A stretch of DNA of 64,000 bases from Nanobdellota archaeon (GCA_038045945.1 JBBSXC010000001.1:1-64000), one strand, 5' to 3'. Numbered from the stretch's first letter, positions 9,491 to 64,000 are shown. Notes: generated by a model not told the origin, from the sequence alone. Translations and numbers: made by a program.

Positions 9491-10426
9491 ATGAAATCTC
9501 TATCTATTGGCCCTATCAAACTTGCTAATCCTTTTATTCTTGCCCCAATGGTTGATGTTACTGATCTTTCTTATCGTCAGCTTTGTCGCCAGGCTGGTGC
9601 ATCGCTGTCTTTTGTTGAGATGGTTTATGTTAATTCTTTGTCTAATGGTAATGATTTTACTAAGAGACTAATAAGGAAGTATGATGGAGAAAAACCTGTT
9701 GGAATACAAGTTGCTGGTAGTAGTGTTGAAGAGTTCAAGAAGGCTTTGCCCGTTCTCAAAACTTTTGATTTGGTAGATATTAATTGTGGTTGTCCATCGA
9801 ACAGAATAATTGGTGGTAAGGCTGGTTCGTACTTGCTTAATACTCCTAAGAAAATTGCGCAAATAATTTCTTATTTGAAGTCTGAAGGTTTAGTTGTTAC
9901 TGCTAAGATTCGCTTAGGTTTTTTTAAGAATAATGTTTTAGAAATCGCTAAGGTTATTGAGGATGCTGGTGCTGATGCTTTAACTATTCATGCTCGTTTG
10001 GCAACTGATGGTAATGATGTTAAGGCTGATTGGGAAGAAATAAGAAAAGTTAAGCAATTTCTTAAGATTCCTGTTATTGGTAATGGTGATGTTGTTGATG
10101 GTAAGTCTGCTAAAAAACTTCTTAGTTTTTGTGATGGTGTAATGGTTGCTCGTGCATCGCTAGGTAATCCTCTTATTTTTCGCAACATCATTCATTATTT
10201 TGATAATGGTAAAGAAATTTCTACTTCTCCTCAGGAAAGGATTGCTCAGCTAAAAAAGTATTTTTTAAATGTTGAAAAGAATGGTGTTTTGAAAGTTGAG
10301 AGGGTTAAGCATGTTTGTAACTATTTCTTAAATGGTTTTCCTGGTGCTTCTAAGATGAGGAATGATTTTAATAAAATAAAGACGTCTAGTGAAATAAAGA
10401 GTTTTATTGATAATATTACGCTATAA
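9491..10426 (+). CDS. dus: tRNA-dihydrouridine synthase
   Basis: LAPMVDVTD, DINCGCP, TAKIRLG, TIHAR and VIGNGDV. Confidence 0.93.
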   Translation: MKSLSIGPIKLANPFILAPMVDVTDLSYRQLCRQAGASLSFVEMVYVNSLSNGNDFTKRLIRKYDGEKPVGIQVAGSSVEEFKKALPVLKTFDLVDINCGCPSNRIIGGKAGSYLLNTPKKIAQIISYLKSEGLVVTAKIRLGFFKNNVLEIAKVIEDAGADALTIHARLATDGNDVKADWEEIRKVKQFLKIPVIGNGDVVDGKSAKKLLSFCDGVMVARASLGNPLIFRNIIHYFDNGKEISTSPQERIAQLKKYFLNVEKNGVLKVERVKHVCNYFLNGFPGASKMRNDFNKIKTSSEIKSFIDNITL

Positions 10427-48483: not shown

Positions 48484-50016
48484 ATGAGTAAAATAGAGGA
48501 AATTTTAGAGTCTCTTAGTCTTGTTGAGCGACAAATACTTCCTTTCGTTAGAGAGGGCATGGATGAAGTCGAAAAACGCTCTGGCCTTGATAATACTTCT
48601 ATTTTGCGTGCTTTACAATTCTTAGAAAATAAAGGTTTGATTGTTAAGGATGTTAAAAAATCTAAGGTTATTGATCTTGATGATAATGGTAGAATCTATC
48701 TGGGTGAGGGTTTGCCTGAGAGAAAACTTTTATCTTTGTTAATTAAGGAAAAATCTTTGACTATTAAGGATGCTAAAGTTGACAGCAAGCTTAATGATCA
48801 GGAGTTTAGTGTTGCTTTAGGATCGCTTAAGAATAAGGCTTTGGTTAGGATTGATTCTGGTAATGTGAGTTTTGTTGGTAAGAAGGATGATACGGATAAA
48901 AAGTTTTTTGAGGAAGAATTATTGGTTAAGCTTCCTGTAAGCCTTGATTCTTTGGAAGGTCCTTTGAGGCTTGCTTATGAGAATCTTAAGGAGAGGAAGG
49001 GTATCATAAAAGTTCGTGATGTTTCTGATTATGTCGTTAAGCTTACAAGTATTGGTGAGGATGTTGCTCGTTGCACTGTTGATTCTTCTTATGATAATAT
49101 GATTGAACAAGTTACTCCTGACATTATTAATAATGAGTCTTGGAGGGGTAAGAAGTTCCGTCGTTATGATGTTAAGAGTAGGGTTCCAGAGATAAGTGGT
49201 GGTAAGAAACATTTTGTTAATCAATCTGTTGATTATGGTAAGAGGATTTGGTCTGATCTTGGCTTTAAGGAAATGACTGGTCTTATGACTCAAACATCTT
49301 TTTGGAATTTTGATTCTTTATTCACCCCTCAAGATCACCCCGTTAGAGAAATGCAAGACACATTCTTTATTAAGGACGCCATTGGAAAGCTCCCTAACAA
49401 AAAAATAGTTGATGCAGTAAAGTCTTCTCATGAGGGAAAAATAAAAGGTAGTAAAGGTTGGCAATACGAATGGAAAGAAGAGGGAGCAAAGAGGGTTTTG
49501 ATGAGAACACAAACTACTGGCCTTTCGGCAAAAACTTTAGCTAAGCTTGGAGAATTAAAGAATAGTAATGAGAAAGAGGGGAAATTTTTTGCTTTAGGGA
49601 TGAATTTTCGTAATGAGACTGTTGATTGGAGTCATGGATTTCAATTTAATCAAACTGAGGGAATAGTAGTAGGAAAAGGATTAAACTTCAAAAACTTGCT
49701 ATGGTACCTCAGAGAGTTTTTTAAGAAGATGGGTTATGAGAAGGTCAGGTTTAGGCCTGCTTATTTTCCTTATACTGAGCCTAGTGTTGAGATTGAGGTT
49801 TGGCATCCAGAAAGAAAAATTTGGTGGGAGTTAGGTGGTGCTGGAATGTTTAGGCCTGAAGTAACAATTCCTTTACTGGGAGAGCATATACCTGTTTTAG
49901 CTTGGGGTCCTGGTTTTGATCGTACCATGATGGATTATTACAAAATTACTGATTTGCGAGAGTTTTATGAGAATGATTTGACTAAGTCAAGAAAGAAAAG
50001 GATGTGGATGAAGTAA
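48484..50016 (+). CDS. pheS: Phenylalanine-tRNA ligase alpha subunit
   Basis: FWNFDSLFTPQDHPVREMQDTF, FRNE, YFPYTEPS and ELGGAGMFRPE. Confidence 0.96.
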   Translation: MSKIEEILESLSLVERQILPFVREGMDEVEKRSGLDNTSILRALQFLENKGLIVKDVKKSKVIDLDDNGRIYLGEGLPERKLLSLLIKEKSLTIKDAKVDSKLNDQEFSVALGSLKNKALVRIDSGNVSFVGKKDDTDKKFFEEELLVKLPVSLDSLEGPLRLAYENLKERKGIIKVRDVSDYVVKLTSIGEDVARCTVDSSYDNMIEQVTPDIINNESWRGKKFRRYDVKSRVPEISGGKKHFVNQSVDYGKRIWSDLGFKEMTGLMTQTSFWNFDSLFTPQDHPVREMQDTFFIKDAIGKLPNKKIVDAVKSSHEGKIKGSKGWQYEWKEEGAKRVLMRTQTTGLSAKTLAKLGELKNSNEKEGKFFALGMNFRNETVDWSHGFQFNQTEGIVVGKGLNFKNLLWYLREFFKKMGYEKVRFRPAYFPYTEPSVEIEVWHPERKIWWELGGAGMFRPEVTIPLLGEHIPVLAWGPGFDRTMMDYYKITDLREFYENDLTKSRKKRMWMK

Positions 50017-51668
50017 TGGCTGGCGTAAAGTTTTCTAGAAAAGAGTTTGAGAAGAGATTGAAGATAACTCCTCAAATTATTGATAGGATTAACATGTTTG
50101 GTACTCCTTTTGAAGGAATGACTGATGATGAAGTGGAAATTGAGATATTTCCTAACAGGCCTGACATGTTAAGTATAGAGGGATACTTACGATCTTTAGA
50201 AGCATTCCTTGATAAGAGGGGGAAAACTGGGATGAAGCATTATAAGAAGGAGAAGAGTAATTACAAATTATTGGTTGATAAGTCTGTTCCTAAACAGTGG
50301 CCTTATGCTATTGCTTGTGTAATAAAAGGGGTTAAGCTTAATAGTGATAGGGTTAAGGACTTAATACAATTACAAGAAAAGCTTGGTTCTACACTTCTTA
50401 GAAGGAGAAAGAAGGGTGGTGCAGGACTTTATCCTTTGGGTAAGATAGAGTGGCCTATAAAGTTTGAGGGTAAAAAATTAAGAGAGATTATTTTCCGGCC
50501 TTTAGAAATGGATGATTACATAACTGCTGATAAAATCTTGGATTTACACCCAACTGGTAGGAAGTATGCTCATGTTTGCCAGTCGTGGGATAGTATGCCT
50601 GTTTTCACTGATAAGAAAGGCAGAGTTATGTCTATGCCTCCAATAATTAATTCTCATGATTTTGGCAGGATTGATGAGAAAACAACTGATATATTTTTGG
50701 AAGTAACTGGTAATGATATGAATACTATTCAGAGAACATTAACAATTATTTCTACTGCTTTAGCTGAGATGGGTGGTAAGATTTACGAGGTTGAGTGCGT
50801 ACAAGTAAATGGTGATAAGACTAATCAACCAATTCTTGATGTTGAGAAGATGAAAATTAATACTAAGAATATTCAGGGCACTTTGGGAATTATTGTTGAT
50901 GATAAGGATGTTAAGAAGCTTCTTGAGAGGATGGGTTATGATTATGATGAAAAAAAGAAGGAAGTTTCTATACCTTCTTGGAGGATTGATGTAATTGCTG
51001 AGTGTGACCTTATTGAGGATGTTGCTATAGCTTATGGTTATGAGAATATAGAGCCTCAAATGCCTCTTGGTGTCACAACTATTGGTCAGGAAAGTAATAA
51101 GAGTAAGTTTTGTAGGAAAGTTTCCGAGGCACTTATAGGTTTGGGGTTGTTAGAGGTTTCATCTTATTATTTGCTTAGAGGTTTAGATATTAGGAGAGCT
51201 AGGATTAAGCCTTCATTAGAGGTTGAGGATAGCAAAACTGATTATAAGTATCTCAGACCTAGTTTAGTTCCTGGAATTTTGAGAATTCTATCAGAAAATG
51301 TTGATTCTGAGTACCCTCAAAAAATCTTTGAGATAGGCACAACTTTTAGAAAGTCTAATAGCAGCCAAACAGGCATTGGTGAGAAGACTAAAATTTGTAT
51401 TTCTTCTACTCCAGGTAATTATACTGAGTCTAAGCAAGCTCTTGATTATCTTATGAGGATGATTGGTGTTTCTTATGAGGTTGTTGAAGGTAGGAAGAAG
51501 GATGGCCTTATAACCGGAAGAGTTGGTGACGTGATTGTTGGCGGGAAAAGAGTTGGTTTTATTGGTGAAGTTCATCCTCAAATTCTTAAAAATTTCCGCC
51601 TTAAAGAATCATTAGCTGTTATTGAGTTGAATCTTAAGAGTCTTTATAATTCTATAAAGATTATCTGA
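50016..51668 (+). CDS. pheT: Phenylalanine-tRNA ligase beta subunit
   Basis: PNRPDMLS, MPPIINS, DLIEDVAIAYGY and GEVHP; TAATG coupling to pheS. Confidence 0.95.
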   Translation: MAGVKFSRKEFEKRLKITPQIIDRINMFGTPFEGMTDDEVEIEIFPNRPDMLSIEGYLRSLEAFLDKRGKTGMKHYKKEKSNYKLLVDKSVPKQWPYAIACVIKGVKLNSDRVKDLIQLQEKLGSTLLRRRKKGGAGLYPLGKIEWPIKFEGKKLREIIFRPLEMDDYITADKILDLHPTGRKYAHVCQSWDSMPVFTDKKGRVMSMPPIINSHDFGRIDEKTTDIFLEVTGNDMNTIQRTLTIISTALAEMGGKIYEVECVQVNGDKTNQPILDVEKMKINTKNIQGTLGIIVDDKDVKKLLERMGYDYDEKKKEVSIPSWRIDVIAECDLIEDVAIAYGYENIEPQMPLGVTTIGQESNKSKFCRKVSEALIGLGLLEVSSYYLLRGLDIRRARIKPSLEVEDSKTDYKYLRPSLVPGILRILSENVDSEYPQKIFEIGTTFRKSNSSQTGIGEKTKICISSTPGNYTESKQALDYLMRMIGVSYEVVEGRKKDGLITGRVGDVIVGGKRVGFIGEVHPQILKNFRLKESLAVIELNLKSLYNSIKII

Positions 51669-52112: not shown

Positions 52113-52673
52113 TTATGCGAATACTCCAAGGATGATCATTGCGTTCCCTATTGCGTGCGCAATCATTGCTGGTAGTACGTCGCGTTTGTTAATTATGAAT
52201 AGTAATGAGTATGTTATCCCTATTATTGTTAAGTATATTATTCTTATTGTGTCTGTGTATCCGTGAATCCATACAAATACGAATAGTTGTATTATGAATC
52301 CTAGTATTATGAATGCCCATGATGCTTTCTTGTTATCTATTCTTGATGATAAGAAGAATGCTCCCCCTAGTATTAGCCCTCTTATGAATAATTCTTCGAA
52401 GAATGGCCCTATTATTATGTATGATAAGAGGGAAAAAATGTTCTTTGCTCCTGCTTCTATTAGGAGTATCCCCGCTGCGAATCGAAATATTGATAATACA
52501 ACAAATATTGTTATTGTTGGTATTATGAATGTTTTCATAATGCTTTGGTAGTTTAGGCTAAATATTGCGTGGTGGGGTATCATTTTTCTAAGCCAGAAGT
52601 ATCCTAATAAGAATATTATTCCAACACCGAACCATATCAGGTCCGTGGTTAATAACTGTGATATTAGAGCCAT
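52113..52673 (-). CDS. CPBP (CAAX/Abi) intramembrane metalloprotease
   Basis: EELFIRG, FVWIH and AHAIGN. Confidence 0.88.
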   Translation of the reverse strand: MALISQLLTTDLIWFGVGIIFLLGYFWLRKMIPHHAIFSLNYQSIMKTFIIPTITIFVVLSIFRFAAGILLIEAGAKNIFSLLSYIIIGPFFEELFIRGLILGGAFFLSSRIDNKKASWAFIILGFIIQLFVFVWIHGYTDTIRIIYLTIIGITYSLLFIINKRDVLPAMIAHAIGNAMIILGVFA

Positions 52674-53711: not shown

Positions 53712-54220
53712 ACGTATAATTCTTCAAAGAATAATTTTTGTTTTGCTACTATTTTGAATTTGTATCCTTCTCTTACCAAGATTTTTTCTACGTCTGGTGT
53801 CATTGAGCTTGACAAAAATAATATTTTTCCATCTTCTACTAAGAAGTTTTTTGCTCCAATGAGAAATCTTTCTATTATTTCGTTGCCTTTTTCTCCTCCG
53901 CTGGTTATTACTGCGCTTTCTTCATCTTCTAATTCTTCTTTTGGTAGGTATGGTGGATTAAATATTATTATGTGGAATTTGTCTGATTCTGGTACGTTAT
54001 CGAATAAGTCTGATTGTTTTGTTTTTATTCCTAAATTTTTGCAGAATTTTACTGCTTCCTGGTTTATGTCTACTGCGTATACTTCTGCTCCGCACTCTTT
54101 TGCTTCTAGTGCTAGTATTCCGCTTCCTGTTCCCACGTCTAATACTTTCATTCCTTCTTTTACGTAGTCGCTTATTTCGTACTTTAGTAAAAACGAGTCT
54201 TCTGCTGGTTCGTAAATCAT
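53693..54220 (-). CDS. HemK2/MTQ2 release-factor glutamine methyltransferase
   Basis: IYEPAEDSFLL, LDVGTGSG and FNPPYLP. Confidence 0.92.
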   Translation of the reverse strand: MIYEPAEDSFLLKYEISDYVKEGMKVLDVGTGSGILALEAKECGAEVYAVDINQEAVKFCKNLGIKTKQSDLFDNVPESDKFHIIIFNPPYLPKEELEDEESAVITSGGEKGNEIIERFLIGAKNFLVEDGKILFLSSSMTPDVEKILVREGYKFKIVAKQKLFFEELYVYLAWS

Positions 54221-54412
54221 GAAAATTTCCCTCTTCTAATTTTCAGGATGTCGAAATGTACACATTTCTTAATCATAAATTTATTGTAATACTTCCCCAT
54301 ATAAACCTTTTTATGTCAAGAAGATTGTTTTTTTATTATCATAAATTTTTTATGCAGAACTTTAAAAGTTTGTAATCAGAACTTTTATATACTAGTTATG
54401 CTATAATGTATT

Positions 54413-54493
54413 ATGTTAGTTATAAGACAGCTTACAACAATGAATTCTATTAAGGCTGGCTGTGCTTATGATAATATTAAGTGCTTCTACTGA
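54413..54493 (+). CDS. Putative leader peptide 1 (26 aa)
   Basis: MLVIRQLTTMNSIKAGCAYDNIKCFY; the ATG lies about 22 nt after the BRE/TATA cagaacttttatata, the leaderless spacing seen elsewhere in the window. Confidence 0.45.
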   Translation: MLVIRQLTTMNSIKAGCAYDNIKCFY

Positions 54494-54543
54494 AGAGCTC
54501 TTAATAAATAACTAAAAATTTCTTAAGAAACATCTTCCAAAAC

Positions 54544-54861
54544 ATGACACTTAAATCTATAACCCCTGAACTTGAACATAAGCTGACAGTTAGCAACTTA
54601 GTCTTTTTAGCTATTAGTAAGCTTAGTATTAGGCAGCTTGAAATATTGAAGAAGGTTCACAAGTATCATAGTGTTAAGTCTTCTTCTCTTATTCGTGAGG
54701 TTGAGAGAAGGCTTGGTTTTTCTAAGAAGAAGACGATTAGTGAGATTGAGGAATTGGGTGAACTAAAACTTCTTGCTCCTAGGATTATTGATAATAGCAG
54801 GGAGCTTGAGCTTACTGAGCTTGGTGAACTTATAACTGCTGAAGTTGAAAGAGAAGTATAA
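54544..54861 (+). CDS. Small winged-helix (MarR-like) protein
   Basis: LSIRQLEILKKV...HTH...ELELTELGELI wing. Confidence 0.7.
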   Translation: MTLKSITPELEHKLTVSNLVFLAISKLSIRQLEILKKVHKYHSVKSSSLIREVERRLGFSKKKTISEIEELGELKLLAPRIIDNSRELELTELGELITAEVEREV

Positions 54862-54867
54862 AAAATT

Positions 54868-56139
54868 TTAGTCAAGAATAATTGGTTTTGCTGTATTCAA
54901 AATGTTATCAAAGACTTTTTTTACTTTTGTGAAGTTTTTGTTACCTAATGATTTGTGTAGTATCGCTACAGGATGGTAACCCAAGTATTCTCCAACCATC
55001 ATTTTGTCATTAACAGAATGCATTAATTCTTCATTGTCCACGATTATCATTGGTGCAGCTATTTTTCCAGGATAAGTGTAAACCGATAAGTTTTTTGATT
55101 TTCCAGAACGAAGATATATGTCTCTTAAATTTGCTACTGTTGCTAACCATTCATGCATCATGCGGCTGTCTTTAACATTTTTAACAAATTTTTCTTCTGT
55201 AAACACTCTTTCTTGAAATTCTTTAGTTGATGAGTCGGCTAATAACACTCTTACTTGCTGGTCTTTTTTTATTAGTTCTATTATTTTTTTACGCCCTTCA
55301 TGAACAGCTGATAGGCATGTTGATCCTAAAATATCTATTGACTTATTTGCTTTTTCGAAAAAGTTGTACAGGTTTATTTCGTGACGTGAATCAAAAACCT
55401 TTTTGTCGCTTAATGCTATTGCCCATAATTTTTCAAAATAACTTTGAAATGATGCTGCTGCGCTTTGAGAGTGGATAACTACTGATATTATTGGTCTTGC
55501 ATCCCATAAAACCCATGCTACTTTATCTCCATAAACCCATGTGGAGGTTGAGCTTTTGTGAGCGGACTTTAAAAAACGCAGTTCTCCGCTAATATTCTTC
55601 ATAAATGGTAGTGAGTCTGACAAGTCGTTAAGAATAACTCTTGATTTTACACCAAGCCTCTTTTTTTTCATTTGAGCTGATTTGTAGTAGTCTTCTCCGA
55701 CGTTACGAACCATTTCGCTACTTCTTCCTATTGCCACGTATTCCTTTTTCGTTTTAGCACACCAGTCTAACATTCCTTCAAAAAATGATTTGAAACCGTT
55801 AAATCCTATTAGTGTATCGATTTTTGATTCTTTTTCGGTTTCTCTTAATGATTTAGAACTATCAATTATTTTTTTTATTTTTGCTAGTTCGCTCTTTAGG
55901 TTATCTTTTGCTTCCTCACCATATCTTTGCAAGGCCATTATGTTAATAGAATAAACTTTTAGCCCGTTTGTTAGGTTGCATAAAACAAGGCCTTTTTCTT
56001 CTAATCTTCTTATAGAGTTGTAAGCTGTTCCTTTGTGAAGTCCTAGATGTTTAATTACGCTACCAAGTGATGTTTCTCCAGCTGTTAAAACTTCGTTAAA
56101 TATTGATTCTTCTACCTTTGTTAGCTTAAATGTCTTCAT
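54868..56139 (-). CDS. TrmB-like regulator with two tandem effector (PLD-fold-like) domains
   Basis: LTKVEESIF...LGLHKGTAYNSIRRLEEKGLV HTH; TWVYGDKVA...FQSYFEKLW; second domain SIDILG...VRVLL...MIIVDNE. Confidence 0.75.
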   Translation of the reverse strand: MKTFKLTKVEESIFNEVLTAGETSLGSVIKHLGLHKGTAYNSIRRLEEKGLVLCNLTNGLKVYSINIMALQRYGEEAKDNLKSELAKIKKIIDSSKSLRETEKESKIDTLIGFNGFKSFFEGMLDWCAKTKKEYVAIGRSSEMVRNVGEDYYKSAQMKKKRLGVKSRVILNDLSDSLPFMKNISGELRFLKSAHKSSTSTWVYGDKVAWVLWDARPIISVVIHSQSAAASFQSYFEKLWAIALSDKKVFDSRHEINLYNFFEKANKSIDILGSTCLSAVHEGRKKIIELIKKDQQVRVLLADSSTKEFQERVFTEEKFVKNVKDSRMMHEWLATVANLRDIYLRSGKSKNLSVYTYPGKIAAPMIIVDNEELMHSVNDKMMVGEYLGYHPVAILHKSLGNKNFTKVKKVFDNILNTAKPIILD

Positions 56140-56225
56140 AGTAGTCGTATAAGGCGACTAATCTTGTTTAAATATATTGTTATTTTGTTTTATTAATGAA
56201 TGATTGGAGGAATGACTGATTTATC

Positions 56226-57044
56226 ATGGGGATCTATATACCGTATCCCTCTTCAAATCATACTACATCTGTAAGTGACTTTGTTATAACTACTTTAACT
56301 TCTAAATGGCCTTTAACTGCTAAAAAACTCCATTACCATATTAAGTCTTATCAGAATTGTTCTTATCAGGGCGTTCATAAAGCTCTTAAACAACTTTTAG
56401 AGTTTCAAGTTGTTGAAAAGGTTGGTAGAGAGTACTTTATCAGTAAGGATTGGTTACGATCCACTGCTAATCATTTGAAGCTTATTGAGCAGCAGTATAA
56501 TAAGCCTAATAAAGCGGTTAATAACACTTTTATTTTTAATAGTTTAGAAGAAGCTGAGAGGTTTAAGAACGATCTTCATTGGAATCATCTTTATCATGGT
56601 GGACCTCAGGTCCTTTATGCTCATGTTTATCATTTAAGGTCTCCTATTATTAATACTGAGAGCATTCTTAAAAAGATTGAGAAGGATAGAGCTTCTAATA
56701 ATGAGTCTTTTATTATTGTTCATGGCCAGACTAAGCTTGATAAGCATTGTAAGCATTTTTATGAGCAGTCTGGCAAGAATAATGTTGTACTTGGTAAAAT
56801 TTTAGAAAATGATTGTGAGTTAAGAGTTATGGGTGATACTATAACTCAGATGTATCTTCCTAAAGAGCTTATTAGTCAACTTGACGAGTTTTATGATTCT
56901 GCTTCTATTAATAATCTCGAATTATACAAATTGTATGGTTTATTCAAAGAACAACACCAGATCAGGATTACTGTAACTATTAATAAGGAAATGGCTAACT
57001 TGTTAAAAAAGCAGATTCTTCAGTCTTTTATATCTTCAAATTGA
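56226..57044 (+). CDS. Winged-helix regulator with C-terminal effector domain
   Basis: WPLTAKKLH...SYQGVHKALKQL...VEKVGREYFISKDW. Confidence 0.7.
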   Translation: MGIYIPYPSSNHTTSVSDFVITTLTSKWPLTAKKLHYHIKSYQNCSYQGVHKALKQLLEFQVVEKVGREYFISKDWLRSTANHLKLIEQQYNKPNKAVNNTFIFNSLEEAERFKNDLHWNHLYHGGPQVLYAHVYHLRSPIINTESILKKIEKDRASNNESFIIVHGQTKLDKHCKHFYEQSGKNNVVLGKILENDCELRVMGDTITQMYLPKELISQLDEFYDSASINNLELYKLYGLFKEQHQIRITVTINKEMANLLKKQILQSFISSN

Positions 57045-57732
57045 ATACTCTGATGGCATTGCCATGTAATATCAGGTTTTTTTCTTCTTGTGTTAATTCA
57101 GATTTTAACACTTTTAGTATTTCTATTTGGTGATCTGAGAATGGTACGTCTGATCCGAACATTATTCTGTCTGCCCCTACTTGTTTTGCTCTTAGTTTTA
57201 TTATGAATGGTGATGATACTATTGATGTTTCCACGTACACATTGTCGCATGCTTGCATTCTTGAGAAGAATTCGTCTGAGTCTCCAGCAAAATGTCCAAA
57301 CACGAATGGTATTTTTGGGTAACGTTTAGCTAATGTTAATAATCTTTCTGGATCTGTTGATGATAATCCTTCTTTTCTTGTGTGTATTATTATGGGTTTT
57401 GATTTTTCTGATAATATTTTGAAGAACCATGATAATTGTTCATCTAAAGGGTCAAAGTCTTCTCCTCTAGGGTGGAGTTTTATTGCTACAAAATCGTCTA
57501 ATACTCTAACAAGTATATTACGATCAATCACTTTAGGATTGCATCTTAAGACTGGTAATAAGTCTTGATGTAAATCTCTTAACTCTAAACTATGCTCAAA
57601 AACATCTCTCTGAGATTTTAGAGGAAAAACAAGTGATTTAGTCACACCATGTTTTTTCATTGATTCTAACAGTTGTAGTGAGTTAAGACCTGTTTTTCCT
57701 TCTCCAACATGTGTATGGACATCAATTATCAT
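57028..57732 (-). CDS. Metal-dependent amidohydrolase (Amidohydro_2, TIM barrel)
   Basis: IIDVHTH, IKLHP, IIIHT, FGHF and RIMFGSDVPF. Confidence 0.9.
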   Translation of the reverse strand: MIIDVHTHVGEGKTGLNSLQLLESMKKHGVTKSLVFPLKSQRDVFEHSLELRDLHQDLLPVLRCNPKVIDRNILVRVLDDFVAIKLHPRGEDFDPLDEQLSWFFKILSEKSKPIIIHTRKEGLSSTDPERLLTLAKRYPKIPFVFGHFAGDSDEFFSRMQACDNVYVETSIVSSPFIIKLRAKQVGADRIMFGSDVPFSDHQIEILKVLKSELTQEEKNLILHGNAIRVFNLKI

Positions 57733-58280
57733 AATAATTCTACTCCTATACCAAATGCGTCTCCTCTTTCATATCTTAATACACTATATGTTCTATTTAA
57801 GTTGTCATCCTTTGATAATGGACGAGTTTTTGTCAGCATTCGTCCATAACATCCCTCGACTATTTTTCTTGTTATTTTATAATCTTTTATTTTTTCTTCA
57901 GATACGCATTCATCTAGTATGTTTCTTAATGAATGTTCAATAATAGGGTTTTGTGTTGTTGTTTTTATATTCCTTAGTTTACGTGATAGTCCTTCATCAA
58001 CTCTGCACCTCAAAAGGCTATAATAATGACCATTTTTGTGTTTTTCTTCTCTTACTACTGAGCCTGCTAAGTAAAAACTTCCTTCTGATAGGCTCATTGA
58101 TGAAAAGCCTACAGCCTTCCCACGTTCATAAGTAACAAATACTAATTCTGGTTCCTGTATATGCCTCTTTACTTCTTCTGGGCTCATTCCTGAACCAAAA
58201 GTAGCAATTGATAAGTCTACTAGTTCATTCATAACACCTTCTGGTATTGGATTTGTTGATTTTTCGAACTTGTTTATCAT
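57729..58280 (-). CDS. GNAT-fold N-acyltransferase
   Basis: AVGFSS, YLAGSVVREEKHKNGHY (motif A-like) and TTTQNP; ATGA overlap with the amidohydrolase gene. Confidence 0.7.
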   Translation of the reverse strand: MINKFEKSTNPIPEGVMNELVDLSIATFGSGMSPEEVKRHIQEPELVFVTYERGKAVGFSSMSLSEGSFYLAGSVVREEKHKNGHYYSLLRCRVDEGLSRKLRNIKTTTQNPIIEHSLRNILDECVSEEKIKDYKITRKIVEGCYGRMLTKTRPLSKDDNLNRTYSVLRYERGDAFGIGVELL

Positions 58281-58846
58281 AATGGTTCTCCTAAAATTAT
58301 TCTATTCTCTCTTGATGTTACAGGTAAAAATTTTATTTCGGCTTCGAACCCTTCGCTTTTAACTCTTCTTAATCTTGCTTCATCTATGAAGTGTCCAACT
58401 GATTGATAATTCTGAACGCTTTCACCACGCATTAAGTCAGCATATGCCAGAAGATTTCTTTGTGTATGACAACATGTTTGCACAACAAATGGACTTTTGT
58501 TTTTTACTGCTGCTGATATTAATTTGTCTGTTAATTCTCCACATAAGTGCAAACCTGTTAGGAATGCATCTGTTGGTATATCCGTATAATCTTCTATTCT
58601 GCCTACAAATCTAATAAATGGCTTCTTTATTAGTGCAGAATAATAATCAGCTTTTCTTATTAATGCTGGTTCAACCGTTCTTACTGACTTAACACTGTCA
58701 TGTCTTGATAGCATGTAAGCTAATTGATGATCACCTGAGCCTACATCAACTATTTCATAACCGCCTGATATAGAATCAAAAAATTTTGTTGCTTCTTTAT
58801 AAAAAGCGAGAACCTTGTCATCAAGGTTAATCTTTCTCTTAGACAT
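58277..58846 (-). CDS. SAM-dependent methyltransferase (Methyltransf_32-like)
   Basis: IVDVGSG motif I, GLHLCGELTD, TCCH, IDEARL and TSRENRII; ATGA overlap with the GNAT gene. Confidence 0.8.
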   Translation of the reverse strand: MSKRKINLDDKVLAFYKEATKFFDSISGGYEIVDVGSGDHQLAYMLSRHDSVKSVRTVEPALIRKADYYSALIKKPFIRFVGRIEDYTDIPTDAFLTGLHLCGELTDKLISAAVKNKSPFVVQTCCHTQRNLLAYADLMRGESVQNYQSVGHFIDEARLRRVKSEGFEAEIKFLPVTSRENRIILGEPL

Positions 58847-60401
58847 CTCTAGCCACCATTCTACCGACATGGTACAAGTGTTTAATTAATCCATTAACTC
58901 TTTCATCTGTATGGTGATTCATTATTTGGACGTATAATCCTCCAAATCCTTCCGCTTTTTCGTTTAGCCCTACTTTTCTTTTTGATTCTTTGTATGCTGC
59001 TAAGTCTTCTAGTGTTCTTACTTTCATAGTATCACTGTGGGATATGTAGTATCTTTCTTCGTCTCCTGATTCATTAATCCTGTGATATACTCGATCATTA
59101 GCTTTATGTCCCCCTTCTTTCATCTCAAATGGTATTATTGGGCATGCTGAACCAGTTATTAATTTGAACGGGCTTTCTGGGCTTTCTAGTGCTTGTGATA
59201 ATTTTTTTGTTAGTCCTTGCATCCTTTCTGCTTCTTTCCTTAGACCGCTCATTCCTCTGCTTGTTAAATAAGCCCATAGCATTACCGCGTTATGGCCTGA
59301 TCTTGATATGAACATTCCGGGTAATTGTCCCATTTCTTCAACAAATTCATAACCTTGGCTTTTATCACTGTGTAAATATGGTGATTCTAGACTTGTCTCG
59401 TTCATTAGTTCTGTATCTCTGAACATTACAACTCCTCCCCCGTATACTGCCCCTGGTGTTTTGTGAGGGTCTAAAATTATTGCTTTTACTCCTTCTATCC
59501 CAAAGTCCCATTCTTGATGGATTGATTTTTCTCCAATAACAGATGAGAACAAAAATTGTTGTGCTGCATCCACAATTATTGGTGGAGTATTTTTTCCTCC
59601 GTATTTTTCTTTTAGTATTTCAAACATCTCACTTACTTTGTCAAGTCTTCCCTTACTAACGTCACCTACTGTTGGAATAACTGCTAGTATATTATCTCCT
59701 TGCTTGTGAATTTCATCAATTCTTTCTCTAAAACTTTTAAGGTCTGTTTGATATTTATTATCTAATCCATAGTGTACGACTGAGTCAATACCTAAGCCTA
59801 AAACATCTGCTGCTCTCTCAACACATAGATGTGCGTCAACGGGTACAAGAATTTTTGGTTTGTCTCCTAAGAAACTTTGTAAGCCTGAAGCTCTAATTTT
59901 TGGTTTATCATGTTTGTTATTGTTTGCGAATGAAAAACCTTCTTTTTCTCTGAAATATTTGTTTCTAAAGGAATAAAGTGCTTGAGTCATTGATTCGCTG
60001 CCTCCCGAGGTAAACCAGGCGTTGCATCTTCTAATGTTTGGGTGGTGCATTAATTCGCCAAGCATGCTCATTGTTTCCCTTTCTAACTCAAACATTCCTA
60101 CAAACATTGCAGGATCAACCAGGTTAGGGTGTATTCTTCCAACTACACTAGCTGCTAGACTATAAGAGAATTGGTCTGGTAAAGTTCCAGGTTTAGCGTC
60201 CATTATTCCTTTATCATAACGAACGGCGCATCTTTCAACTGCTTTTTCCACTTCTTCGACTAATAATTCTTTATCAATGCCTTTTTCTGGTATTTTAAAG
60301 CATCTTTTTCTTTGTGGAATTATATCAACTAACTTTTTTTTGTTTTGTTGTTTTTCTGAAGAATGATAGCGCTGTATTGGATCAAAAAAATCTGCTGTCA
60401 T
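58839..60401 (-). CDS. Group II PLP-dependent amino acid decarboxylase (MfnA/tyrosine-tryptophan decarboxylase-like)
   Basis: NLVDPAMF..LERE, FTSGGSES, AHLCVERAADVLG, VDAA and LDPHK (PLP lysine). Confidence 0.88.
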   Translation of the reverse strand: MTADFFDPIQRYHSSEKQQNKKKLVDIIPQRKRCFKIPEKGIDKELLVEEVEKAVERCAVRYDKGIMDAKPGTLPDQFSYSLAASVVGRIHPNLVDPAMFVGMFELERETMSMLGELMHHPNIRRCNAWFTSGGSESMTQALYSFRNKYFREKEGFSFANNNKHDKPKIRASGLQSFLGDKPKILVPVDAHLCVERAADVLGLGIDSVVHYGLDNKYQTDLKSFRERIDEIHKQGDNILAVIPTVGDVSKGRLDKVSEMFEILKEKYGGKNTPPIIVDAAQQFLFSSVIGEKSIHQEWDFGIEGVKAIILDPHKTPGAVYGGGVVMFRDTELMNETSLESPYLHSDKSQGYEFVEEMGQLPGMFISRSGHNAVMLWAYLTSRGMSGLRKEAERMQGLTKKLSQALESPESPFKLITGSACPIIPFEMKEGGHKANDRVYHRINESGDEERYYISHSDTMKVRTLEDLAAYKESKRKVGLNEKAEGFGGLYVQIMNHHTDERVNGLIKHLYHVGRMVARDV

Positions 60402-60403
60402 TT

Positions 60404-61438
60404 CTAATAGTATTTTAGAAGCATTACTTTTCTTACTTCTTCCATAGTTTTGCTTGCTTCCTCCCTTGCTTTTTCTCCTCCTTCTCTTAGTACTGTCTCT
60501 ATTGTTTTGTCTGATATGCTGTCAAACCTGTTTCTGTATTCTTTGTATGTTGTTGACATTAATGGTGGTAGTTTTTGTTTGCATTCTCCACATCCTAGTA
60601 TTGCTTGCCTACAACCGTAGTATACTTCAGCGAATTTTTCTTGGTTGTATATTCTGTGAAGGTCGTAAACGCTGCATTCGTCTGGGTTTCCTGCGACTTG
60701 CATACTTGTTCTTTTTGGGTCTATTCTCATCTTTGCAACTTTTTCTGATAATGTTTTTCCTGTGTCTTGTGGGCTTATCGTGTTTGCGTAACTCTTTGAC
60801 ATTTTTCTTCCGTCTGTTCCTAGTATTCTTGGCGCGTTACTTGTCAGTATTTCTGGTACTGGGAATATTGGTCCGTATGTTGCGTTGAATCTTTTTGCTA
60901 ATTCTTGGCATAGTTCTATGTGTGGTTTTTGGTCGTCTCCTACAGGTACATATTTTGCTTTGTGTACTAGTATGTCTGCTGCTTGTAATAATGGGTATCC
61001 TAAAAACCCGTAACTTACTTGGTCTGCTTCTAATTTTTTTCTGTTATGTCCTTCTTCTTTCATTATTTGTACGTATTCTGTGAATGTTGGCATTCTCTGA
61101 AGTCTTGCTACTGTGTTTAGCATTGATAACGCTACGTGTAACTCTGCGTGTTGTGGTACGTCTGATTGTACAAATATTGTTGATTTTTTTGGGTCTATTC
61201 CGAAAGCTAACCAGTCACGAACCATGTCATAAGTGTTTTTTCTTATTTCTTTTGATTCTGTGTTTGTTGTTAGTGCGTGCCAGTCTGCTACGAAGAATTT
61301 GCATGCGTATTCTTCTTGTAATTGTAACCATTTTCTTAATACTCCTTCTATGTGCCCTATGTGTAGTCTTCCTGTTGGTCTCATCCCGGATAATACTGTA
61401 GGTTTTAATTCATCATTAGTTTTTTCTTCTAAACTCAT
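60404..61438 (-). CDS. trpS: Tryptophan-tRNA ligase, bacterial type
   Basis: LSGMRPTGRLHIGH, VADWHALT, QSDVPQHAEL, YPLLQAADIL, VPVGDDQ and KMSKS. Confidence 0.95.
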   Translation of the reverse strand: MSLEEKTNDELKPTVLSGMRPTGRLHIGHIEGVLRKWLQLQEEYACKFFVADWHALTTNTESKEIRKNTYDMVRDWLAFGIDPKKSTIFVQSDVPQHAELHVALSMLNTVARLQRMPTFTEYVQIMKEEGHNRKKLEADQVSYGFLGYPLLQAADILVHKAKYVPVGDDQKPHIELCQELAKRFNATYGPIFPVPEILTSNAPRILGTDGRKMSKSYANTISPQDTGKTLSEKVAKMRIDPKRTSMQVAGNPDECSVYDLHRIYNQEKFAEVYYGCRQAILGCGECKQKLPPLMSTTYKEYRNRFDSISDKTIETVLREGGEKAREEASKTMEEVRKVMLLKYY

Positions 61439-61603
61439 AATTATTCATTATTAAAAAGAAACGAAATAGCTTTGGTTGAAGCTTATTCTTTTTTTAGTGT
61501 TATTATTATAAACTAATAGTTGATTTTTTCCTTTATTACTTTAGTATTATGTAGTTTTTCTTGCACAAAACCTTTTTATAGCTCATTATTCCTTGTTTAT
61601 TTA

Positions 61604-61690
61604 ATGGAAAGAAGTTTTGGTTCATTAGTCATGGTTTGTAGTATTATGCCTAGATGGACTTATACACCTTCTTCTCATATTTTTGGTTAA
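61604..61690 (+). CDS. Putative leader peptide 2 (28 aa)
   Basis: MERSFGSLVMVCSIMPRWTYTPSSHIFG; the ATG lies about 23 nt after the TATA in aaaacctttttata. Confidence 0.45.
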   Translation: MERSFGSLVMVCSIMPRWTYTPSSHIFG

Positions 61691-61746
61691 GAGGCTAATT
61701 TTTTAGCACTTCTTAAAAAAATAAACTTTTTTACCTCTAAACCAAA

Positions 61747-62109
61747 ATGACTAATAAAAATAAATCTAATGCTTTTGAATTTGACTTAGTACTGTCAAGT
61801 GTTTTGTCTTTTGTTAAGTGTAAGATTCCTCAGAAACATATTGATGCTCTTAGAATAATTCATCAGGTTGATAGTGAGCTTAATGCTACTTCTCTTATTA
61901 CTCTTATTTCTGGTAGTTTGTACTGTTCTACTTCTACTTCTTGGAACATTTTAAGGTCTCTTAATAAGCACGGATTTATTGTTTGTGGTACTAAGGATGA
62001 TAAGGGTAAACTTGTTCGTCTTACAAATTTCGGTATAGTAGTAATAGGAGGTGTTTTTGATGACAAAAAAGTCTTGTCCAAGAATCATAGAAGAATATTT
62101 GCTTCATGA
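61747..62109 (+). CDS. Small winged-helix (MarR-like) protein
   Basis: IPQKHIDALRII...STSTSWNILRSLNKHGFI...LVRLTNFG. Confidence 0.7.
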   Translation: MTNKNKSNAFEFDLVLSSVLSFVKCKIPQKHIDALRIIHQVDSELNATSLITLISGSLYCSTSTSWNILRSLNKHGFIVCGTKDDKGKLVRLTNFGIVVIGGVFDDKKVLSKNHRRIFAS

Positions 62110-62272
62110 CCCTTTACTTATTGATGACGGCTTGAAGGGTAGAGAAGTTAGTAAGGGTTTAGATGTTCTCCTTAGTGATGGTATGCAGAACTCTAATAAT
62201 TCTTATGATGATCTTAGGAGTATTATTGTTCCCGGCTATGATGGAGGTAATAGTTATGGTGGTATGATCTAG
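62060..62272 (+). CDS. Small hypothetical protein
   Basis: Strong SD aggaggtg before ATG 62060; overlaps the wHTH 3' end. Confidence 0.5.
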   Translation: MTKKSCPRIIEEYLLHDPLLIDDGLKGREVSKGLDVLLSDGMQNSNNSYDDLRSIIVPGYDGGNSYGGMI

Positions 62273-62347
62273 TGCTCTTTTAGGATATAATTAGAAATAA
62301 TAGTTTTTAGTATAGATTTACTTAAAAGAGAACAGAAACTCATTAGG

Positions 62348-63418
62348 ATGATGTTAGCTGGTACATTCTCAAATACTGATATAAGAAAAGCCATAAGTAG
62401 CGGGGAGATTATTTCTAGAGCTGAAATAAGTGATGTTCAAGTTCAGCCTTCTTCTCTTGATTTAACTATTGGTAGAAAAATTTGGTGTTTACCTTACTCT
62501 TCAATACCTCAGGGGAGAATAGAGGATTACTTGGATGGGAAGAAGTCTGATGTTGAAGATAAAGACGAGACTTATTTGCATAAGAGAGTTTTATACGTTG
62601 CTGAAATAAATGAGGAGTTAAGATTACCTGGCGATGTTGAAGGAAAATCTGAGCCTAAGAGTTCAACTGGTAGGATTGATGTTCATGTAAGGCTTCTTAC
62701 GCAGGGCGGACAAGCTTATGATCAGGTGAGACCTGGTTATAATGGAAAATTGTTTTTAGAAATTTTTTCTAAAACTTTTGATTTAAAAATAAAGTCTGGC
62801 ACTTCTCTTAACCAGTTAAGATTATCTGATAATGGTTGCGAATTTTTGAGTAAGTCTAGGCTTGAGGAGTTATGCACTGATCAGAGAGTTATTTTTACCG
62901 GCGATGGTAAGGCTATTAGCCCTGATGAATTTTTGGAGGATGATTCTATATCTATGACTCTTGATCTTAGTGGTGATAATCCTGGCTATATTGGTAGGGA
63001 TGATGCTCCCCCTCTTGATCTTTCTCGCTTCGATCATGGTTTACTTAAATATTTTGATGTTCCTAAAGTTTTTGATGAGGGTCTTGTTACTAGGCCTGGT
63101 GCTTTTTATTTGCTTAGGTCTAGGGAGAGGGTTAGGATTCCTCGCAGGTATGGTGGTGAAATGGTTAGTATGGAAACAAATCTTGGTGAGTTTAGGGCTC
63201 ATTATGCTGGTTTTTTTGATCCTGGCTTTAATGCTCGTGCGGTTTTAGAGGTTAGGAATATTGGTGGTTCTCCTTTCTTGTTAAGGCATGGTCAAAGGAT
63301 TGCTAACCTCAAACTTTTAAGGTTGAAGACTAAGCCTTCAATAATTTATGGTAGGGGCATTGGTAGTAATTATCAGGGTCAGCAATTAAACCCCGGTAAA
63401 TATTTTAAAGCAATTTAG
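62348..63418 (+). CDS. dcd: Two-domain dCTP deaminase (DCD family)
   Basis: QVQPSSLDL, PKSSTGRIDV, HYAGFFDPGF, VLEVR and SNYQGQ. Confidence 0.88.
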   Translation: MMLAGTFSNTDIRKAISSGEIISRAEISDVQVQPSSLDLTIGRKIWCLPYSSIPQGRIEDYLDGKKSDVEDKDETYLHKRVLYVAEINEELRLPGDVEGKSEPKSSTGRIDVHVRLLTQGGQAYDQVRPGYNGKLFLEIFSKTFDLKIKSGTSLNQLRLSDNGCEFLSKSRLEELCTDQRVIFTGDGKAISPDEFLEDDSISMTLDLSGDNPGYIGRDDAPPLDLSRFDHGLLKYFDVPKVFDEGLVTRPGAFYLLRSRERVRIPRRYGGEMVSMETNLGEFRAHYAGFFDPGFNARAVLEVRNIGGSPFLLRHGQRIANLKLLRLKTKPSIIYGRGIGSNYQGQQLNPGKYFKAI

Positions 63419-63463
63419 ATATTTGGAGTGTAGGTTTATTAATTTGTAAATCTCTGTTATAAT

Positions 63464-63733
63464 ATGTCAAAAAAAGAAATCTCTACTGGTGTAGTTCATG
63501 GTGTGCCTGATGATTTGCGTAAGACTCTTGCTTCTTCTTCGCATGCTCTAAAATCTTGGGAGAGTCTTACTCCTCTTGCTCGTAATGAGTGGATTTGTTG
63601 GGTTGAGTCTGTTAAAAAGGTTGAGACTAGGAATGATCATCTTAGAAGGCTTCTTCAGGATCTTATTAATGGTAAGCGTCGTCCTTGTTGTTGGGCTGGT
63701 TGTATTCATCGATTTAAAAATAAGAGAAATTAG
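63464..63733 (+). CDS. YdeI/OmpD-associated family protein
   Basis: VPDDL, WESLTPLARNEWICWV and GKRRPCCWAGC. Confidence 0.8.
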   Translation: MSKKEISTGVVHGVPDDLRKTLASSSHALKSWESLTPLARNEWICWVESVKKVETRNDHLRRLLQDLINGKRRPCCWAGCIHRFKNKRN

Positions 63734-63796
63734 CCATATTTACAAAACGCCCCCACCGCCGAAGGAGTCATCAATGCATCAAGCAGGGATATAAAA

Positions 63797-63979
63797 TTAA
63801 GTTTTCTTCTTATCAGAAATTTTTCTTATCCATTGTACATCAATTAATATTATTAAAAATGCTATGCCTATCTTTAACCACCATACTCCCTTAAAACCTT
63901 CCAGTAAATCTTGTATCCCTAGGGCTCCTAAACCGCCAGCAGCCATTATTAAGAACTCATCAAAAAGTGTCTGATCCAT
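63797..63979 (-). CDS. Small membrane protein
   Basis: 60 aa with two hydrophobic segments. Confidence 0.5.
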   Translation of the reverse strand: MDQTLFDEFLIMAAGGLGALGIQDLLEGFKGVWWLKIGIAFLIILIDVQWIRKISDKKKT

Positions 63980-64000
63980 TTTACTATAAACTACAATCTC

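Follow-up and report, generated by a model that had tools for sequence, protein, structure and literature searches.

In lactic acid bacteria, aminoacyl-tRNA synthetase (aaRS) genes are linked to the gene clusters for tyramine and histamine, a linkage which the available portion of one report calls 'a general feature' (PMC3315439), and the tdc operon has the order tyrS-tdc-tyrP-nhaC in the excerpted text of another (PMC12607914). According to the same portions of both sources, the tyrS or hisS of such a cluster is proposed either to act as a sensor of the amino acid or to ensure that its tRNA is charged during decarboxylation (PMC3315439; PMC12607914). Why aaRS genes belong to decarboxylase clusters has been an open question since these clusters were described. 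Here, an operon with a comparable gene pair is reported from a Nanobdellota archaeon. It lies at 57028-61438 in a stretch of 64,000 nucleotides (nt) (GCA_038045945.1 JBBSXC010000001.1:1-64000), which as a whole is called the window, and it starts with genes for a bacterial-type tryptophanyl-tRNA synthetase (TrpRS) and a pyridoxal phosphate (PLP) dependent decarboxylase similar to MfnA. Judged from gene order and sequence, the operon is predicted to belong to an accessory, patchily distributed module of DPANN archaea, whose core is a second aromatic aaRS translationally coupled to an MfnA-like decarboxylase.

The operon is composed of five open reading frames (ORFs) on the minus strand, encoding TrpRS, the PLP decarboxylase, a methyltransferase, a GNAT and an amidohydrolase in this order (Table 1). 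Most of the layout given in an original prediction, which had been made from the sequence alone, stood: the genes are co-oriented, the TAG of trpS is separated from the ATG of the decarboxylase gene by the letters AA (a 2-nt gap), and the methyltransferase/GNAT and GNAT/amidohydrolase junctions are both ATGA overlaps. The 8-nt overlap described for the TAA of the decarboxylase gene (ATGTCTAA) holds for the second ATG of the methyltransferase gene; counted from the first ATG at 58870, the overlap is 32 nt. The gene families named at that time were borne out by profile scores and, in the case of the GNAT, by family members and fold.

The pair of aaRS and decarboxylase genes is also present in other DPANN archaea. 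In the following, related genomes and loci carry G and L codes, G000 being the genome of the window (847 kb, 93% complete). The loci examined for the decarboxylase family number 19, namely the window, L008-L018, L025-L028 and L125-L127, of which the near-identical L010 and L011 count as one. A class Ib aaRS is located directly beside the decarboxylase at 14 of the 19. No adjoining aaRS was found in L009 and L028, L125 has none on its 5' side and is cut on its 3' side, and L017 and L018 are cut on the 5' side. In the vicinity of four decarboxylases of more distant relationship (L128-L131), an aaRS is absent. All 12 pairs that were measured are co-oriented, with a spacing of -14 to +12 nt, and because the same tight pair on one strand recurs in 12/12 cases the linkage is not a matter of chance. 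The linkage of trpS and decarboxylase, for which a restriction to this single genome had been considered, was thus met in further DPANN contigs and genomes. Conservation of the five-gene set as a whole was not observed: only the core of aaRS and decarboxylase is kept, and the accessory genes are interchangeable.

Three types of partner enzyme occur, two of them TrpRS and the third a tyrosyl-tRNA synthetase (TyrRS) (Table 1). All host genomes that were checked contain two class Ib genes besides the one for the linked aaRS. According to BLAST, these encode an archaeal TrpRS and an archaeal TyrRS in G094, G443, G154 and G127, and for G560 and G612 three class Ib loci each are known by count alone. 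A maximum-likelihood tree of the decarboxylases consists of two clades of 13 and 8 rows with 100/100 support. The larger clade holds eight decarboxylases linked to a bacterial TrpRS, three linked to an archaeal-type TrpRS, and those of L009 and L125, so that TrpRS is the only aaRS partner; the smaller one holds the three decarboxylases linked to a bacterial TyrRS together with unlinked ones. The group with archaeal-type TrpRS is nested inside the group with bacterial TrpRS; therefore, the lineage of the partner was replaced while the amino acid was kept. Furthermore, the pairwise identities of TrpRS and decarboxylase are correlated (r=0.92 for 15 non-independent pairs from 6 loci). The idea of an aromatic amine in the original prediction fits these data, since the decarboxylase is MfnA-like and its clades track Trp- or Tyr-specific partners. 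The pairing recurs with partners of differing origin, and the clades of the decarboxylase correspond to the amino acid of the partner. Together, this is strong comparative evidence for functional coupling, and it is very probable that aaRS and decarboxylase act together around one aromatic amino acid.

The decarboxylase family is rare. An index of 5.8 billion proteins contained 12 full-length relatives of the decarboxylase with 30-36% identity, one of them named Woesearchaeota. The decarboxylase was found in none of 60 close relatives (0/60), two other matches there being weak with 25.5 and 16 bits. Strong matches exist in 3/401 genomes of a phylum sample, and strong or medium ones in 6-7/401 genomes of a class sample, G000 included in both. 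A scan of genome contigs for the decarboxylase gave one locus, on the same 3603-nt contig as G094:C2.

The decarboxylase matches PF00282 with 1e-29 and 103.9 bits (cut-off 27) and is the only protein of G000 above the cut-off of this family. It misses the cut-off of the MfnA equivalog TIGR03812 (114.2 versus 299.4 bits) and is accordingly called MfnA-like and not filed as MfnA. In an alignment with MfnA of M. jannaschii, the motifs SGGSE, AH, VDAA and DPHK as well as the loop PYL are kept, and H191, D278, K314, Y320 and Y342 are invariant across 19 relatives. We take K314 to be the Schiff-base lysine, D278 the aspartate at the pyridine nitrogen, H191 the ring-stacking histidine and Y342 the tyrosine of the catalytic loop. 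The AlphaFold2 (AF2) model has a pLDDT of 80.5, with a region of low confidence at 343-358 immediately after the loop residue Y342. Its best Foldseek matches are the MfnA structures 6m4y, 6jy1 and 3f9t (E 1e-24, TM 0.86 by target), followed by sphingosine-1-phosphate lyase (SPL), glutamate decarboxylase (GAD) and aromatic amino acid decarboxylase (AADC). A predicted complex of decarboxylase and TrpRS had a score of 0.00 and a mark of 0.32 and was used neither for nor against an interaction. The patchy distribution and the score under the MfnA cut-off speak against a housekeeping role as MfnA or in the formation of beta-alanine. By its partner and clade, the enzyme of the window would act on L-Trp.

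The TrpRS of the operon matches PF00579 (2.5e-64) and, with 304.5 bits against a cut-off of 176.75, TIGR00233, residues 12-339 being aligned to positions 2-326 of the 328 model positions and thus including the catalytic and the anticodon-binding part. Among solved structures, its best match is 2g36 (301.6 bits, residues 14-341), which is presumably the iron-sulphur (Fe-S) TrpRS of Thermotoga maritima. In seven cluster TrpRS, L25, H26 and G28 of the HIGH region, K212-S216 (KMSKS) and the residues Q152, A154, D155, I156 and L157 in the QAADIL of the Trp pocket are invariant; the HIGH motif reads HLGN in one of the seven. The cysteine set C-x20-C-x6-C-x2-C is invariant in 7/7 as well, and all four cysteines are matched in 2g36, which suggests an Fe-S cluster site. 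By their motifs, the cluster TrpRS look like active synthetases under purifying selection.

The original prediction had asked whether the operon copy might be the only trpS of the genome, and this is not the case. G000 encodes three class Ib synthetases: the bacterial-type TrpRS of the operon, a standard archaeal TrpRS (NF008927, 512.5 versus 478 bits) and an archaeal TyrRS (NF006330, 395 versus 220 bits). The sole tRNA-Trp(CCA) found in G000 by ARAGORN is located at C1 c[80574,80645], about 19 kb from the operon, and is archaeal in its identity elements (G1-C72 and A73). Its acceptor stem (C1:80574-80645) contains a C4.A69 mismatch, and the tRNA-Tyr of this genome (C3:124006-124225) was called with a 146-nt intron. 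The tryptophan biosynthesis enzymes TrpA and indole-3-glycerol phosphate synthase (IGPS) were not found in the 93%-complete genome, so Trp is probably scavenged or imported.

Table 1 Genes of the window operon, partner enzymes of the decarboxylase family and accessory genes of related loci (positions without a locus code refer to the window)
Feature	Position or loci	Strand	Remarks
Bacterial-type TrpRS	60404-61438	-	344 aa; first operon gene
MfnA-like group II PLP decarboxylase	58839-60401	-	520 aa
Methyltransf_32-family S-adenosylmethionine (SAM) methyltransferase	58277-58870	-	197 aa (first ATG) or 189 aa (ATG at 58846)
GNAT-fold N-acyltransferase	57729-58280	-	183 aa
Amidohydro_2 / TatD-like metal-dependent hydrolase	57028-57732	-	234 aa; last operon gene
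AT-rich intergenic region	61439-61746		308 nt; 5' of trpS, common to the divergent ORF 61747-62109; presumed promoter region
TrmB-like helix-turn-helix (HTH) protein	54868-56139	-	423 aa; two genes downstream; PF01978 1.4e-5, just under cut-off
Partner: bacterial-type TrpRS	window, L008, L010-L013, L016, L025		upstream of decarboxylase
Partner: divergent archaeal/eukaryal-type TrpRS	L014, L015, L126		upstream of decarboxylase
Partner: bacterial-type TyrRS	L026, L027, L127		downstream of decarboxylase
Methyltransf_32	window, L013, L025, L026, L052, L127		after aaRS/decarboxylase
Methyltransf_23-like	L008, L012
GNAT homologues	window, L016, L017, L052
AstE_AspA deacylase	L012, L016, L017, L018, L052, L127
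M28 peptidase	L008
M20 peptidases	L028, L126		near decarboxylase
Lrp/AsnC-type small regulators	~9 loci		21-member BLAST family, two L026 members of which have a confirmed AsnC ligand domain
Prephenate dehydratase, prephenate dehydrogenase, aminotransferase	L027		flanking
CM_2-domain proteins	L052, L025
TrpD-family glycosyltransferase (Glycos_transf_3, ~400 aa) and BtpA pair	L009 2683-4676, L025 11422-13400, L126 4196-6167		beside decarboxylase

The three remaining enzymes of the operon are putative tailoring enzymes. The methyltransferase belongs to PF13679 (Methyltransf_32; 1.9e-8, 34.8 bits versus 27), and its Atlas feature and structure neighbours are Methyltransf_32 throughout. In addition, it shows a weak match to TRM13 under the cut-off (18.5 bits), and of the two proteins returned by a homologue search the 64%-identical one carries PF05206. 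The GNAT stays under the Pfam threshold by its own sequence (PF13673, 19.7 versus 23.6 bits), and a PDB sequence search gave chance-level matches only. Its family consists of 178 representatives at E<=0.001, 33 of 55 members match PF00583, the AF2 model (pLDDT 95.9) is closest in Foldseek to RimI, IAA acetyltransferase and EctA, and the Atlas score to GNAT clusters is 0.96. The acetyl-CoA loop has the consensus QGxGxY in the family and reads HKNGHY in the window protein, where only the second glycine is kept. Fold matches and loop consensus speak against an enzyme of the Fem or L/F-type aminoacyl-tRNA transferases. For the same reasons, i.e. the acetyl-CoA loop of the family and the likeness to small acetyl-CoA acetyltransferases, the suggestion that Trp-tRNA or Trp-AMP feeds the GNAT found no support. 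The amidohydrolase matches PF04909 (Amidohydro_2; 2.9e-24, 86.8 bits), and its nearest solved relative is the 'predicted amidohydrolase' 3cjp (1.9e-11).

Its position is held elsewhere by non-homologous deacylases, either AstE_AspA or, in L008, the M28 peptidase. Both Trp- and Tyr-type clusters carry the same accessories, whose probable target is the amino or backbone group that the two amino acids share. One locus (L052 in G165) contains a bacterial TrpRS, a Methyltransf_32-like gene, a GNAT and AstE_AspA; a family decarboxylase is missing there at E<=1e-20. At another (L028 5834-10065, G280:C1), a distant decarboxylase has no aaRS, and the genes after it encode a GCS2-type carboxylate-amine ligase and an M20 peptidase; the synthetase is replaced here by an ATP-dependent ligase. 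Three TrpRS-like genes are found within 5 kb in L053 (4430-9337, G039:C1): two divergent archaeal-type copies in tandem, with a Zn-alcohol dehydrogenase after them, and a bacterial-type copy followed by a small radical SAM/SPASM protein.

Among Rfam elements, T-box and riboswitches included, none was detected at E<=1 in 54000-64000. The TrmB-like HTH protein is a possible regulator, judged by its domain and position, with a weak association. Relatives of it, defined as a BLAST cluster, are located near the clusters of L013, L016 and L127, and Lrp/AsnC-type regulators occur elsewhere instead. A hydroxylase, an O-methyltransferase of the ASMT type and an exporter are not present in the operon. 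Upstream and divergent, at 62348-63418, a two-domain dCTP deaminase (DCD_N and DCD_C) of 356 aa is encoded (NF005734, 274 versus a cut-off of 283 bits). Translation genes are abundant in the window, for instance those of the PheRS beta subunit (50001-51668), some 5 kb away from the operon, and of EF-1alpha (about 17.9-19.2 kb). No RNA runs are listed for the stretch; the DNA runs number four and come from one groundwater-metagenome study, and two of them are possibly its source.

How might these enzymes work together? Tentatively, and with a little less than an even chance of being correct, we propose by analogy with the bacterial clusters that Trp is converted to tryptamine, which is then tailored, while the co-translated TrpRS protects the charging of tRNA-Trp. 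The decarboxylase would form tryptamine from L-tryptophan, the Methyltransf_32 enzyme and the GNAT would add N-methyl and/or N-acetyl groups to the amine or to the amino acid, and the acylation would be reversed, or the acyl form recycled, by the amidohydrolase. Like tyrS and hisS, the bacterial-type TrpRS would keep tRNA-Trp charged as the Trp pool drains and tryptamine accumulates. Tryptamine is a competitive inhibitor of TrpRS according to the accessible part of one report (PMC12607914). The proposal is backed by the surplus copy of TrpRS, the tight and co-inherited pairing, the agreement of decarboxylase clade and partner specificity, the retained catalytic residues and group II fold of the decarboxylase and the intact motifs of TrpRS. 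The Lrp/AsnC regulators at many loci and the Tyr/Phe pathway genes of L027 provide a suitable context.

Several observations weigh against this proposal. The nearest solved relative of the decarboxylase, MfnA, acts on Tyr and Asp, and the enzyme reaches 114 of the 299 bits set for MfnA. By hydropathy, no multi-transmembrane transporter or antiporter adjoins the pair in the loci scanned; the nearest such protein in the window is Rce1-like with six transmembrane segments (52113-52673). G165 has the tailoring enzymes without the decarboxylase, so TrpRS is also tied to these enzymes alone. AstE/AspA-type deacylases use N-acyl amino acids with a free carboxylate as substrates, and N-acetyl-Trp would suit them better than N-acetyl-tryptamine. 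Import of Trp probably makes its consumption costly. Genes for tRNA-Trp and tRNA-Tyr and EF-1alpha paralogues at related loci point toward translation itself. Finally, the discriminator of tRNA-Trp is G73 in Bacteria and A73 in Archaea in the available text of one study (PMC5370408). A bacterial-type TrpRS is faced here with an archaeal A73 tRNA-Trp, which it may not charge efficiently.

The tRNA genes were surveyed with ARAGORN on Rfam tRNA matches, covering all of those in G443 and G154 and 20/22 in G127 (all but C1:37819-37944 and C1:72975-73054), with the matches beside the clusters contained in L025-L027; the intron mode of ARAGORN mis-assigns some anticodons. A tRNA-Trp gene is situated inside the G443 cluster (L025 11339-11414) and is the only tRNA-Trp among the 29 Rfam tRNA matches of this genome. 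This tRNA-Trp(CCA) (G443:C24; low Rfam score of 45 bits) has an odd acceptor end, with a G1.A72 mismatch or, in the drawing of ARAGORN, an 8-bp stem. Archaeal-type tRNA-Tyr genes adjoin the TyrRS-linked clusters of G154 and G127, a second tRNA-Tyr being present elsewhere in each genome, and a tRNA-Trp adjoins the L014 cluster. Two further 'tRNA-Tyr' calls (L105, L070) were discarded because they have G1-C72 and a discriminator other than A. That the adjacency results from integration next to tRNA genes and from nothing else was rejected in view of the matching specificities of tRNA and aaRS in L025, L026, L027 and L014, with L052 as a mismatch. An EF-1alpha paralogue lies directly 3' of the decarboxylase in L014 (6534-7874) and in L126 (9991-11310, G560:C10), in the latter with a gap of 1 nt to the decarboxylase ORF ending at 9989, and both loci have the divergent archaeal-type TrpRS as partner. 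The canonical EF-1alpha of G560 is encoded elsewhere and shares 46% identity with the paralogue; identity is 44.7% between the two paralogues, slightly more than the 39-42% that they share with EF-1alpha of G000.

These neighbours can be accommodated if the module is centred on tRNA, which we consider unlikely: the paralogous aaRS would then make a dedicated pool of Trp- or Tyr-tRNA for the PLP enzyme, the TRM13-like methyltransferase and the GNAT, with an own tRNA copy or EF-1alpha in some lineages. The GNAT would acetylate the aminoacyl amine, and the architecture would be comparable to SepRS/SepCysS or Sec. The tRNA genes in and beside the clusters, the EF-1alpha paralogues, the weak TRM13 match of the methyltransferase and the PF05206 of its 64%-identical relative agree with such a system. 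However, the window operon has neither a tRNA gene nor an elongation factor paralogue, the single tRNA-Trp of G000 being about 19 kb off, and its methyltransferase is a bare catalytic domain. The PLP enzyme retains all hallmarks of a decarboxylase, and its matches are with MfnA, SPL and GAD instead of SepSecS or SepCysS. The operon lacks the own tRNA, the own elongation factor and the SepSecS- or SepCysS-type enzyme by which SepRS/SepCysS and Sec systems are defined. An esterified carboxyl group cannot undergo decarboxylation. In addition, a tRNA-Tyr is paired with a TrpRS cluster in L052, and the anticodons of all these tRNAs are ordinary (CCA, GTA). In a wider form, which we regard as quite improbable, the aaRS-decarboxylase modules would open natural 'second channels' in translation for an aromatic amino acid, their paralogous TrpRS or TyrRS feeding a tRNA-dependent process linked to a PLP enzyme. 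If true, this would be a previously unknown system of aaRS, PLP enzyme and elongation factor, comparable to the Sec and SepCys machineries, and the operon of the window would be a reduced form of it. The TrpRS could also serve as a ligase transferring Trp from Trp-AMP to the amine that the decarboxylase forms, and the resulting aminoacyl-amide could be cleaved by the amidohydrolase. The carboxylate-amine ligase and M20 peptidase, which fill the slot of the aaRS beside the related decarboxylase of G280, the recurrence of amide hydrolases, and the combination of a bacterial-type enzyme with an archaeal-type tRNA, as far as tRNA types are given in the accessible text of PMC5370408, are in line with this idea; yet the full anticodon-binding region and KMSKS are kept and tRNA genes reside beside some clusters, which leaves it highly improbable.

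Two further explanations stay closer to free amino acids. In a scavenging or homeostasis module, deacylases or peptidases would liberate Trp from peptides or N-acyl-Trp, GNAT and methyltransferase would buffer or detoxify an excess of Trp or of its analogues, the decarboxylase would dispose of the surplus and a second TrpRS of high affinity would capture scarce Trp for the translation of an auxotroph. The apparent Trp auxotrophy and the repeated presence of non-homologous deacylases or peptidases (AstE_AspA at six loci, M28/M20 at three further loci, Amidohydro_2 in the window) would be accounted for, as would the retention of TrpRS, methyltransferase, GNAT and deacylase in G165 without a decarboxylase and the nearby Lrp/AsnC regulators and Tyr/Phe pathway genes. 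What is left unexplained is that the tightest and most consistent coupling of the aaRS is with the decarboxylase, and that an auxotroph should both take up a scarce amino acid and destroy it; this explanation is considered unlikely. The original prediction had included self-resistance, in which the operon yields either an inhibitor of TrpRS derived from Trp or a signal or toxin directed at the host, and the extra TrpRS is the resistant copy. Resistant second aaRS copies are described for producers of indolmycin, mupirocin and albomycin in the excerpted text of PMC9437257. An extra, evolutionarily distinct TrpRS, a patchy distribution reminiscent of horizontal gene transfer (3/401, 6-7/401, 0/60) and variable tailoring enzymes speak in its favour. 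But there is no exporter and no scaffold-building enzyme beyond the decarboxylase, and the same logic recurs with TyrRS, so that only a small probability is assigned to it. Where the 'inhibitor' is the amine itself, self-resistance overlaps with the preferred proposal of tryptamine formation with a protective TrpRS.

Among known enzymes, the archaeal L-tyrosine/L-aspartate decarboxylase MfnA is the best match of the decarboxylase in sequence and fold, with the PLP-binding lysine, the aspartate, the histidine and the loop PYL in common. The window enzyme exceeds it in length by about 120 aa, a conserved GGLY(I/V)Q(V/I)M motif being part of its extensions at the N- and C-terminus, and its family is rare and aaRS-linked, with no methanofuran or CoA context seen. 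A second, divergent TrpRS connected with specialised Trp chemistry is also known from indolmycin producers and as TrpRS II of D. radiodurans, according to the available part of PMC9437257. Unlike in these cases, neither indolmycin-type genes nor a nitric oxide synthase are present, and the paralogue is of the type of another domain and Thermotoga-like (2g36). The melatonin route (decarboxylase, SNAT, ASMT) likewise brings together a decarboxylase, a GNAT and a SAM methyltransferase. A hydroxylase is missing in the operon, however, the methyltransferase belongs to Methyltransf_32 and not to the O-methyltransferases of the ASMT/COMT type, and the accessories also serve Tyr-type clusters (L026, L127), which argues for amino or backbone chemistry.

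Extra TrpRS genes in DPANN and members of the Candidate Phyla Radiation (CPR) have been described as clusters of TrpRS-A, of TrpRS-A-like and of ORF1 (Mukai et al. 2017, PMC5370408). As in the window, the accessible text reports an additional TrpRS beside the canonical archaeal one in groundwater DPANN, sometimes with an extra tRNA-Trp (A73). The paralogue of the window is bacterial-type, unlike TrpRS-A, and the divergent archaeal-type TrpRS of L014, L015, L126 and L053 may overlap with TrpRS-A or TrpRS-A-like as outlined there. The terms 'decarboxylase', 'pyridoxal', 'methyltransferase' and 'acetyltransferase' do not occur in the available portion of that paper. In the literature searched, which excluded supplements possibly holding neighbourhood tables, no description of an aaRS-decarboxylase cluster from DPANN or other Archaea was found. 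The original statement that this gene set had not been described nevertheless overlooks a close analogue, since in lactic acid bacteria the clusters for tyramine and histamine contain aaRS genes, as given in the excerpts of PMC3315439 and PMC12607914.

The pairing of aaRS and decarboxylase arose at least three times in another domain, with a bacterial TrpRS, an archaeal-type TrpRS and a bacterial TyrRS as sources of the partner, and it offers small, tractable enzyme pairs for asking which role the aaRS has, be it safeguard, sensor or catalyst. The presence of bacterial-type TrpRS and TyrRS in Archaea with archaeal tRNA identity elements furthermore bears on natural orthogonality, and the accessory enzymes point to amine or N-acyl aromatic metabolites in DPANN, which are usually deemed metabolically minimal. 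The link to tRNA genes and EF-1alpha paralogues is the potentially much more novel side. With the tyrS-tdcA and hdcA...hisS clusters, as far as they are presented in the available text of the two reports, the operon shares a second, non-housekeeping aaRS for the substrate beside a PLP decarboxylase. It differs from them in its archaeal (DPANN) host, in the TrpRS partner (TyrRS in sister loci), in translational coupling, in lacking a T-box or other Rfam element and an antiporter, and in the attached methyltransferase, GNAT and deacylase; moreover, its decarboxylase is MfnA-like and not of the ~620-aa enterococcal TDC type (TIGR03811, 43.9 versus 905 bits). By this analogy, the operon is best filed as an archaeal variant of the aaRS-decarboxylase clusters of lactic acid bacteria.

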